Of a DNA stretch of 64,000 bases, positions 54,001 through 57,000 are shown one piece after another. A program made the position numbers. The stretch is from a virus. Taxonomy: Duplodnaviria > Heunggongvirae > Uroviricota > Caudoviricetes. The DNA is taken from the IMG/VR virus record IMGVR_UViG_2703718861_000013, one strand, 5' to 3'. How positions within the stretch are numbered: the first letter of the stretch is position 1; every line of letters starts with the position of its first letter.

Positions 54001-57000
54001 TGTGGTGGAGTCCGGACTGCTTTTTGCTGATCCTGCCGTAGTGGATCGTGAAACTGACGAACTTATAGAAAAAGCAATTGCTTTCAAACTTGCGTATCGA
54101 CAGCAATACCAACAAAAAGCTGGATGGAATTATGAGCCTTCTTTTTGCTGAACGCCCACTGGTTATAAACACACAGCTTGCGATGAAGATTGGCTTAAAT
54201 GAAGCCATTGTGTTGCAGCAGTTGCATTACTGGTTGAGAGATACCAATTCCGGTATGGAATGTGATGGTGTTCGCTGGATTTACAACACAACGGAACAAT
54301 GGCTGGAACAGTTCCCATTCTGGTCAGAGTCAACGTTAAAGCGCGCGTTTGCAAGTCTGAAAACGCTGGGGCTTTTGCGTTGTGAAAAGCTCAATAAATC
54401 AAAGCGCGATATGACCAATTTCTACACGATCAACTACGGGAGCGAGCTTTTAGATGATGGCAAATTGAGCGAATCCATCGGTTCAAAATGCGCCGCTCCA
54501 TCAGGTCAAAATGACACGATGGAAGAGGTCAAAATGAAACGCTCCATTGGTTCAAAACGATCCAATGTCATCGGGTCAAAATGGCCTGATGATCTTACAG
54601 AGAATACAACAGAGATTACTACAGAGAATAAAAACACTTTTCGTCCGGAAGCTTCGCAACCGGACCCGCAGACGACTGAACAGGATTTTTTAACCCGGAA
54701 CTCCGACGCGGTTGTGTTTAGTGCGAAAAAACGCCAGTGGGGTAGCAGGGAGGATTTGGCGTGTGCGCAGTGGATCTGGGGGCGGATCGTGGGCCTCTAC
54801 GAACAGGCAGCCAGTGATGATGGCGAGATCATGAGACCAAAAGAGCCTAACTGGACTGTCTGGGCCAATGACGTGCGCACAATGCGGATGCTGGATGGCA
54901 GAAGCCACAGACAAATTTGCGAAATGTTTGGTCGGGTTCAGCGAGATCCATTCTGGGTAAAAAACATCATGAGCCCGTCAAAGCTCCGCGAAAAATGGGA
55001 CGAACTGGTCATCCGCCTGGGACGTTCACCTGTACAGCGTTGTGTTAATCATATTTCTGAACCGGATACAGAAATTCCGCCTGGTTTCAGAGGATAAGTG
55101 TTGATTTCAGGTCATGAGGTAATTTTAAGGGGGACTTGTGGCAAAAGTTTTTACACAAGAAGAGCGGGAAAAAATTAAAGGGCAGGTGGTGGAACTCGTG
55201 CGCCAGAGCGGTCGTGAGACGTTACGGCAACTGGAAGCTAAAACAGGTGCGACTAGATATCTGATGAGCGTTCTTGCCAGAGAGCAGGTAGCCAGTGGCG
55301 ATGTATACAACTCCGGCTACGGGTTATTCCCGTCTGAACAGGCGCGTAAGGACTGGCAAAACGCCCGCAAAAAACTCTCGAGGGCAAAGGTGAAGAAACC
55401 TGCTGTGGTTGATCCGGACCTTATCTGGTCATTACCTGACGGAGAAATACGCCGCTACGACAGTCGTCTAAACATAATCTGTCGCGAGTGCCGGAAGAGC
55501 GAAGTTATGCAGCGTGTTCTGACGTTTTATCAGGGGAATTATCGGGAGGTGATGCTGTGAGTACATCGGCTACCATTCTCGACATGTGCTGTGGCAGTCG
55601 CATGCTCTGGTTCGATAAGAATGACGAATGGTCGATATTTAGCGATATCAGGAAAGAGGAACATTCGCTATGTGATGGACGTCACCCGATTATTAATCCC
55701 GACATTATCGCTGATTTTCGTGCGCTGCCGTGGTTGTCTGCTTTGCATCAAAAGCAGACATTACCAGATTTAGACATCTGTTTCCGATAGCCCGTTCTGA
55801 TGCTACACTTTTTGCTATTTTCATGAACCTCATAAACACATTTATGACTGTTGCTGATTTCAAACGCCCCAAATTGGAGCTCCCAAACGGGGCAAAAAAA
55901 CTATTACTGCACTCTTGCTGTGCTCCATGTTCCGGTGAAGTGATGGAGGCGCTTCAGGCCTCGGGAATCGACTACACCATCTTTTTCTACAACCCGAACA
56001 TTCATCCTCAGAAAGAGTATTTAATTCGTAAGGATGAGAATATTCGCTTTGCTAAACAACACGGCGTGCCATTTATTGATGCTGATTACGACACAGACAA
56101 CTGGTTTGAGCGAGCCAAAGGAATGGAATGGGAGCCTGAACGAGGGATCCGTTGTACCATGTGTTTTGACATGCGTTTTGAGCGGACTGCACTGTATGCC
56201 GCTGAAAATGGTTTCAGTGTGATCAGTAGCTCACTGGGCATTTCACGCTGGAAAAATATGCAGCAGGTTAACGACTGTGGACGGCGAGCCGTCGCGCATT
56301 ATCCGGGCATGGTGTACTGGGATTATAACTGGCGAAAACAGGGCGGCTCTTCCCGCATGATTGAAATCAGCAAGCGCGAACAATTCTATCAGCAGGAATA
56401 TTGTGGCTGCGTGTATTCACTGCGCGATACCAATCTACACCGCAAATCTCAGGGACGCCCTCTAATCAAAATTGGTCAACTGCACTACGGTAAGGAAGGA
56501 CAGGAATGATTTTATATTATGCCAACGGAGCGTAGCAGTGTTTCTATATATAGTACGCCTACCTTAATTTTCAAATAATCATGATTAATGAGCAGGTCAT
56601 CAGTGCAAGCAATGACCTGCTCATCTTGTTGAAATTAGAGGAAATCTTGCAGCCATGATATGGCTTAAAATAACGTTTGATTATTTTACCTGCTGTTTGT
56701 CCCTGGTTTAAAGTCGGTTGTCTGATTTGATTACGCGCAACTGACGCTTACGTATTGAAGTAACGAGCACGAAGACACATATTTATCAGTGCCTGTATAC
56801 GTCAAGAGCAGGAGATTTATGTGCTGGTTCTCAAATGCACGCTGGCTATTGTGGCTGTAATGGCAATTTATTGTCTTGTTATTGTTCTTATGGATCACCT
56901 TTCTGATTGATTTCATATTGGCGAGGTAACGGTAGTTAAGTAGAATGGCTGCGGGTGCTTGAGGCTATCTGCCTCGGGCATGAACACCAACGGCAGATAG

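Follow-up and report, generated by a model that had tools for sequence, protein, structure and literature searches.

The 64,000-nucleotide (nt) stretch of Caudoviricetes DNA held as IMG/VR virus record IMGVR_UViG_2703718861_000013 (hereafter the window, at its full length) carries a real, intact and selectively maintained gene for QueH, a cobalamin-independent epoxyqueuosine reductase, on a defective, lambda-like E. coli prophage and next to a genuinely truncated methylase gene, and this queH module is widespread in Escherichia coli. We consider queH to be probably a moron that would make the reduction of epoxyqueuosine (oQ) to queuosine (Q) independent of vitamin B12 (cobalamin) in the lysogen. 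The parts themselves are already known and nothing here is new in kind: both the queH gene and the methylase stub are annotated in RefSeq, and QueH has been structurally characterized. The two genes at the center of the analysis are:

55844–56509, + strand: queH, encoding a 221-amino-acid (aa) predicted cobalamin-independent epoxyqueuosine reductase (Pfam, PDB match, fold match, orthologue alignment)
55557–55790, + strand: truncated phage DNA methyltransferase open reading frame (ORF) of 77 codons (PHROG profiles, tblastn, RefSeq pseudogene flag)

The queH gene and the methylase stub

We confirmed that ORF 55844–56509 encodes a full-length, intact QueH. The ORF opens at ATG 55844, 54 nt past the stop of the stub, closes with its own stop at 56507–56509, and its product matches the Pfam QueH family PF02677 over profile positions 1–174 of 175 (E = 1.9 × 10−65, 220.7 bits against a cut-off of 23.5). 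An initial annotation of this DNA, which had called for just such a PF02677/DUF208 profile search, described an ORF of about 220 aa beginning 30–50 bp after the methylase stop, without an obvious Shine-Dalgarno (SD) sequence and with the cysteine motifs HSCCAPCS, CTMCFD and YCGCVYS of DUF208/QueH. These observations hold: the protein has 221 residues, all three motifs are present, with YCGCVYS standing alongside the CCAPC- and CxxC-type motifs, and no GGAG-type SD precedes either ATG 55844 or the in-frame ATG at 55823.

Structural comparisons point to the same family. The sole solved-structure relatives of the window protein are entries for Thermotoga maritima QueH (PDB 7lc5 at E = 5 × 10−22), and a Foldseek search of the PDB with an AlphaFold model returned T. 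maritima QueH as its five best matches (E ~ 4 × 10−9, target-normalized template modeling (TM) score 0.76–0.78, probability 1.00). Aligned with 13 orthologues, the protein keeps every family-invariant position, including CCAPC, CxxC and CGC, and its cysteines align with C9/C10, the CxxC and the CGC of T. maritima QueH. Pfam finds a single domain and no cobalamin-binding domain. The window protein thus resembles characterized QueH (PF02677; T. maritima 7LC5, 7LC7, 9DEU) in its full-length domain, its fold, its CC..CxxC..CxC set and its similar single-domain size (~190–220 aa). The equivalent gene in E. coli B REL606 is named ‘epoxyqueuosine reductase QueH’ in RefSeq, and PHROG family phrog_3217, labeled ‘unknown function’, matches the protein at E = 5 × 10−136. 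In NCBIfam, neither QueH nor the stub nor the DUF977 protein encoded just upstream had a match; because Pfam, PHROGs and the PDB all agree on QueH, we treated this silence as a library gap in the case of QueH.

The start at ATG 55844 is backed by the alignment with the 13 orthologues and by the Prokaryotic Genome Annotation Pipeline (PGAP). We rejected two other starts. The in-frame ATG at 55823 is unconserved in other alleles and is absent, with an in-frame stop, in the allele of strain 21F61, while a start at GTG 55730, which would give a 259-aa ORF, lies away from the position at which orthologues begin, that of ATG 55844.

QueH also appears to be under constraint. The window gene and the allele found in E. 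coli of sequence type 131 (ST131-type) are separated by 43 nucleotide but only 7 amino-acid differences, corresponding to 0.32 synonymous substitutions per site (dS) and 0.013 nonsynonymous substitutions per site (dN). The resulting dN/dS of 0.04 (0.024 in the core) indicates strong purifying selection on the protein between prophage alleles.

The neighboring 77-codon ORF is a true 5′ stub of a phage DNA methyltransferase of ~160 aa, presumably dead and without its catalytic motif; we conclude this because homology ends before the DPPH motif and no 3′ remnant occurs in the 64 kb. Its frame runs from GTG 55557 to the stop at 55788–55790 and begins with VSTSATILDMCCGS, which bears out the earlier description of a methylase frame that contains DMCCGS and ends after 77 codons at 55790. 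Only residues 3–61 of the stub match the phage DNA-methyltransferase profiles phrog_11564 (E = 3 × 10−28) and phrog_954 (E = 1 × 10−24), the latter across positions 50–108 of a 229-position profile. When longer homologues were compared with the window by tblastn, only their residues 1–62 aligned, at 55557–55742, and no remnant of the methylase C-terminus was found anywhere in the 64 kb. The methylase-derived part of the stub therefore spans codons ~1–58/62 and the final ~15–19 codons are read from cassette DNA, in keeping with the earlier proposal, with which DNA alignments and tblastn agree, that recombination with the queH cassette cut the methylase short at their junction.

The stub keeps the S-adenosylmethionine (SAM)-binding motif I (LDMCCGS) and has lost motif IV (DPPH) and all beyond it, so that only one of the two motifs expected of a functional phage DNA (amino-)methyltransferase, motif I and a DPPH/DPPY motif IV, is present. 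Longer homologues run on as ...VV(L/F)DPPHLE..., where DPPH is the motif typical of amino-methyltransferases; the homologue of a Klebsiella phage is ~160 aa long, and those of E. coli O22:H8 and phage PhiR42_1 have 118 aa. The adenine specificity given in the initial annotation is putative. In REL606, RefSeq flags the equivalent of the stub as a pseudogene, ‘methyltransferase, incomplete, missing C-terminus’.

Cassette boundaries, origin and candidate control elements

The window is co-linear from 40171 to 64000 with a prophage of strain EC43 (99.3% identity), annotated as a lambdoid prophage adjoining rspB, which is the Qin site. Its genes run int, xis, exo, ydfD, dicB ... repressor, cro-like, ydaT, O-like, DUF977, methylase stub, queH, hokD, rem, ydfU, ydfT(Q) and then the lysis genes. 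From this order, queH lies inside the early-right operon and on the same strand. Within this prophage the cassette is bounded by two breakpoints:

55723–55731, no strand: left cassette junction (DNA alignments, pairwise and among four sequences)
56755–56778, no strand: right cassette boundary, window type (return of homology to lambdoid phages that have no queH)

Homology to intact methylase genes stops, and homology to ST131-type queH modules starts, within 55723–55731. On the right, homology to the queH-less lambdoid phages mEp460, Evi and Tritos resumes at ~56755–56778, upstream of hok, giving a cassette of ~1.03 kb (about 55730–56778). The module occurs in at least three flank contexts, which we call window type, ST131/O157/O104 type and 21F61 type. 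The ST131-type module ends at ~56505 and rejoins window sequence at ~56883, and strain 21F61 shares 55796–56778 with the window; the segment common to all three (~55796–56505) comprises the −10 motif described below, the leader and the ORF. The GC content is 48.0% in queH, 48.4% in the replication genes and 49.3% across the window, and falls to 36.6% and 38.3% in the non-coding flanks of the cassette. A 14-nt direct repeat, GGTTGTCTG(C/A)TTTG, is found at 55732–55745, exactly at the left junction, and again at 56716–56729. We rejected it as a flanking insertion repeat and regard it as probably due to chance, because an estimated ~0.2 such pairs are expected per 1.5 kb and because the right copy lies 30–60 bp inside the mapped right boundary.

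We next consider where the gene came from. The nearest non-phage QueH proteins are those of Scandinavium (92% aa identity) and Kluyvera and Enterobacter (89–90%), followed at 79–88% by Symbiopectobacterium, Erwinia, Providencia, Proteus, Photorhabdus and others; chromosomal QueH of other Enterobacterales is 80–92% identical to the window protein. In the non-phage genera, DNA similarity to the window is limited to queH, with no detectable lambdoid neighbors, and the locus of E. albertii alone shares the prophage flanks. Because the similarity is confined to the gene and its neighbors in Scandinavium and Enterobacter are ordinary metabolic genes, the pattern fits capture of queH from an Enterobacteriaceae chromosome. 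Unlike its chromosomal relatives, the window gene sits on a lambdoid prophage or phage, in a species that already has QueG as a core enzyme.

A further homologue at 78% aa identity is filed under ‘Acinetobacter phage MD-2021a’, and we rejected this record as a phage or Acinetobacter source, as the neighbors look like bacterial chromosome (soxR, cynX, tadA). In contigs CAKLQH020000001.1 (328 kb) and CAKLQF020000001.1 (379 kb), the queH homologue stands near soxR, cynX, tadA and ycaQ, and both appear to be bacterial contigs mislabeled as phage. With such neighbors, they provide no evidence for phage carriage of queH.

Two candidate control elements accompany the gene:

55801–55809, + strand: extended −10 element TGcTACACT (comparative conservation; predicted transcription start near 55815–55818)
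56588–56624, + strand: hairpin, possible weak intrinsic terminator (perfect 13-bp stem, 79 nt past the queH stop)

The extended −10 element (TGnTAnnnT) lies ~43 nt upstream of the queH ATG and reads TGCTACACT in the window. Its TGCTACA block is invariant across three prophage alleles and the chromosomal loci of Kluyvera and Scandinavium, the block reading TGCTACAAT in the latter two, while the remaining upstream DNA is essentially unalignable. The same TGnTAnnnT pattern occurs at about −43 in Enterobacter quasihormaechei, Symbiopectobacterium and Acerihabitans. Across 79 related loci, it was present 20–75 nt upstream of the match start in 19, mostly near −43, compared with 4 in a control stretch further upstream. 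Two prophage alleles differ by ~13% in their upstream non-coding DNA (a hand count on the alignment) compared with 26% at synonymous sites. As the −10 element is common to prophage and chromosomal queH loci, these data suggest that the cassette may have brought its own promoter. Near queH, an Rfam scan of 55000–58000 detected neither a riboswitch nor any other RNA element; it yielded only hok/sok and sub-threshold matches.

The hairpin that had been noted downstream of queH is indeed there, with a perfect stem of 13 bp rather than the 12 bp first given (56588–56600 pairing with 56612–56624 around an 11-nt loop). It folds with a free energy of −22 kcal/mol (z = −3.8), a value equaled by none of 200 shuffles; it has a poor U tail (CUUGUUG), went unreported by the terminator scanner and is not found in the commoner ST131-type module. 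A second hairpin at the left junction (55735–55760) was dropped, as inspection of the alignment showed it to be unconserved in the ST131-type allele.

Several of these properties are those of lambdoid morons: a slot filled by unrelated cargo in related phages, sharp homology breakpoints, and a cassette with AT-rich flanks (37–38% GC), its own candidate promoter and a downstream hairpin. Of the promoter and terminator that would let a moron be expressed from the repressed prophage, we see a conserved −10 motif and a stable hairpin, neither of which has the form that generic scanners look for. The locus departs from the lambdoid pattern in that it encodes an enzyme for tRNA modification instead of a toxin-antitoxin, exclusion or virulence function, and in that the GC content of queH (48%) equals that of the phage instead of being distinct from it.

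Distribution and proposed role of queH

We determined the distribution of the module across 5426 complete E. coli genomes. It was present in 998 (~18%), nearly always as a single chromosomal copy, and 882 of these carriers hold an allele 90–95% identical to that of the window; a 92–94%-identical allele was sampled in O25b:H4-ST131, O157:H7, O104:H4, O103:H2, O111:H11 and avian pathogenic E. coli (APEC) O1. The exact window arrangement (stub, queH, long 3′ region, hokD) was found in 68 genomes, including REL606 and ATCC 11303 (both E. coli B) and E. coli C. The region is also carried, at 99.7% identity, by HannyBb, a complete 45-kb lambdoid phage record, where queH (CDS0046) is called hypothetical and given the unconserved upstream start that corresponds to ATG 55823 of the window. 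The B-lineage laboratory strain BLR(DE3) (NZ_CP020368.1) has a 1,361-bp deletion equivalent to window 55435–56795, which joins DUF977 to the hok upstream region and takes with it the DUF977 3′ end, the stub, queH and the 3′ region; REL606 and ATCC 11303 keep queH.

The initial annotation had asked whether hosts carry queG, and every one of the 5426 genomes does, REL606 with an intact copy, which makes queH a redundant second reductase. QueG (YjeS; cobalamin and [4Fe-4S]) carries out the same predicted reaction, oQ34 to Q34 in tRNA, and coexists with QueH in these strains, but the two proteins are non-homologous, QueH has no cobalamin domain, and queG is core where queH is accessory. QueG is described as cobalamin-dependent in passages of PMC5175355 and PMC4646009, and the queuosine pathway is summarized in PMC9508795. 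The arrangement of two reductases in one organism has a parallel. Acinetobacter baylyi ADP1 was reportedly described by Zallot et al. in ACS Chem Biol in 2017 as having both QueG and QueH, and there either alone would be expected to suffice for Q; in E. coli, by contrast, the second reductase is prophage-borne and strain-variable.

We propose the following account of how a B12-independent moron would have arisen and would act. The ~1.03-kb queH cassette lies between the DUF977/Ren-like gene and hok/sok, within the early-right arm of the lambdoid prophage that occupies the Qin site, and its arrival, or later mosaic recombination, would have removed approximately the last 100 methyltransferase codons and left the dead 77-codon stub. 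QueH, as a [4Fe-4S]-type enzyme, would reduce oQ34 to Q34 in tRNA-Asn, -Asp, -His and -Tyr without cobalamin. In the lysogen, queH would be transcribed from its own promoter, apparently kept from the chromosomal ancestor, and after induction the early-right (pR-type) promoter would add read-through transcripts. E. coli has de novo synthesis of Q, with an upstream pathway (tgt, queA and others) expected to supply oQ-tRNA, and is unable to make B12 de novo, and in older work oQ is said to accumulate when B12 is absent. Because E. coli has no de novo B12 synthesis and its core QueG needs B12, a second oQ reductase without this need would render Q maturation independent of B12 supply or uptake. 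We regard this cobalamin-limitation hypothesis as plausible.

A number of observations weigh against this account. At the protein level, the AlphaFold model is of moderate confidence only (predicted local distance difference test score, pLDDT, 68.8), and the position of Asp13 in T. maritima QueH (CCAPD), a residue changed to Asn in PDB 9DCO, is Cys in the window protein (CCAPC), a state shared by 110 of the 114 related cluster representatives that show the motif. At the level of expression, a generic −35/−10 promoter and terminator scan reported nothing for queH, the window −10 hexamer (TACACT) is a weaker one than the TACAAT of the chromosomal loci and has no good −35 partner, and the 21F61-type allele reads TACACA, without the usually critical final T. 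The gene has no SD, and nor do the aligned chromosomal orthologues; because their leaders are SD-less too, its absence is apparently typical of the family and does not point to decay. As queG is universal, any benefit of queH would be conditional and maybe small. BLR(DE3) has lost the cassette without known consequence. Finally, queH was found in just one E. coli phage record of the phage collection, and for this reason vertical inheritance within defective prophages may account for most copies.

Much of this would be expected if queH were a neutral passenger, intact yet physiologically irrelevant, poorly expressed, fully redundant with QueG and hitch-hiking in defective prophages: the universal queG, the imperfect −10 and missing SD, the BLR(DE3) deletion and the rarity of queH in sequenced free phages all sit comfortably with it. 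We nevertheless judge a passenger role unlikely, as a dN/dS of 0.04 at a dS of 0.32 implies long-term purifying selection between prophage alleles, the module has been kept in three recombinant contexts and 18% of genomes, and the −10 motif is conserved. The gene might instead serve the phage, with early-right transcription after induction tuning the Q status of host tRNA for lytic translation. Its place within the cro-O-Ren-...-Q early operon, on the same strand, and its presence in a complete lambdoid phage record would suit such a role, but the −10 element is inherited from chromosomal loci, many of the carrier prophages seem to be defective (REL606 and EC43 both have a pseudogene for the integrase, and in REL606 there are insertion sequence (IS) insertions as well), and we know of no difference in decoding between oQ and Q that would be beneficial within a single lytic cycle. 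We accordingly consider a lytic function improbable.

The initial annotation had also raised the idea that queH is a relic of a phage 7-deazaguanine DNA-modification module, and to this may be added a related one in which the enzyme acts on DNA or another epoxide substrate. To our knowledge, DNA bases of the oQ or Q type have never been reported. The annotations of the EC43 co-linear prophage and of HannyBb contain no dpdA, queC, queD, queE or folE, which agrees with the earlier view of queH as a lone gene and leaves a module without partners, while the nearest relatives are housekeeping-type chromosomal queH genes with the same −10 element. DNA modification by means of preQ0-pathway genes does occur in phages (PMC6884629, PMC10516641), but a 2019 survey of viral 7-deazaguanine genes found no QueA, QueG or QueH homologues in the viruses analyzed (PMC6884629). 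Taken together, these findings make a DNA-modification origin or substrate scarcely credible, and the B12-independent moron remains the reading we prefer.

If that reading were extended to a claim of phage lysogenic conversion of host tRNA modification, in which the queH moron frees E. coli queuosine maturation from B12, we would advance it tentatively, as a possibility that falls short of even odds. Were it true, selection for queH would be possible in gut niches where B12 is scarce or competed for, or where the host has lost BtuB, the B12 transporter that is also a phage and colicin receptor. Laboratory lineages would differ in Q and oQ in B12-free media, E. coli B and C having queH and K-12 having none. 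As K-12 is the reference for queuosine work, experiments on Q/oQ, B12 and queG may not transfer between strains, and prophage queH offers a clean natural case in which to ask if it matters to cell physiology that Q maturation depends on B12. Phage annotation resources currently miss QueH, as seen in the ‘unknown function’ label of phrog_3217 and the hypothetical call in HannyBb. The gene would also represent a phage-borne enzyme specific to Q-tRNA synthesis, a class reported absent in the 2019 survey (PMC6884629); given that survey, phage carriage of queH is a small addition to the literature. A full-text literature search, outside which the primary QueH papers (Zallot 2017; Li 2021) fall, returned no paper on prophage-borne queH in E. 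coli.

The variable slot and its neighbors

The slot that holds the cassette is flanked by one gene and one locus:

55138–55560, + strand: DUF977/Ren-like (LygF) gene, upstream flank (PF06163 at E = 6.5 × 10−29; phrog_142)
56918–57277, + strand: complete hok/sok (hokD-type) locus, downstream flank (promoter scan, Rfam, ORF)

The stop of the DUF977 gene overlaps the GTG start of the methylase. The hok/sok locus comprises a promoter-like site (56918–56946), an Rfam sok match (56953–57127, 115 bits) and the mok/hok ORF (57065–57277). Between DUF977 and hok, related elements carry queH, an intact methylase, a reverse-strand 449-aa ORF or relBE. In mEp460 (mEp460_ev081) the cargo is the reverse-strand 449-aa hypothetical gene (record positions 752–2101, − strand), and in K-12 it is flxA-ydfV-relB-relE, set between a truncated ydaT-type gene (ydfX) and hokD (JM109).

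The comparison with JM109 agrees with the earlier statement that K-12 carries relBE directly upstream of hokD and that relBE is absent from the window. The accompanying proposal, that a cassette exchange replaced relBE with queH, is not supported. K-12 homology to the window starts only at ~57108, inside mok/hok, the K-12 ydaT-type gene is truncated, and the replication genes, DUF977 gene and hok leader kept in the window are missing in K-12. Since homology begins only there, the relBE segment replaced a far larger stretch than the queH cassette fills, and relBE and queH are best read as alternative cargoes of one variable slot, not as direct substitutes. The hokD of K-12 itself shares only the sequence from ~57108 onward, relBE occupying the place of the hok leader/sok region.

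Three further observations concern the surrounding prophage. Just 3′ of hokD, a sub-threshold Rfam match to isrK, an Hfq-binding small RNA (sRNA), covers the full model length at 57286–57367 (+ strand; 25.7 bits against a gathering score of 50, E = 0.008) and may represent a related prophage sRNA or a chance match. The window and the REL606 prophage are 98–99% identical on both sides of the immunity region, across which (~51994–53514) megablast gives no alignment, suggesting a swap of the repressor/cro module. The DUF968 (ydfU-type) gene at 58053–59141 is intact in the window and N-terminally truncated in REL606 (a difference noted at window 58182–58587).

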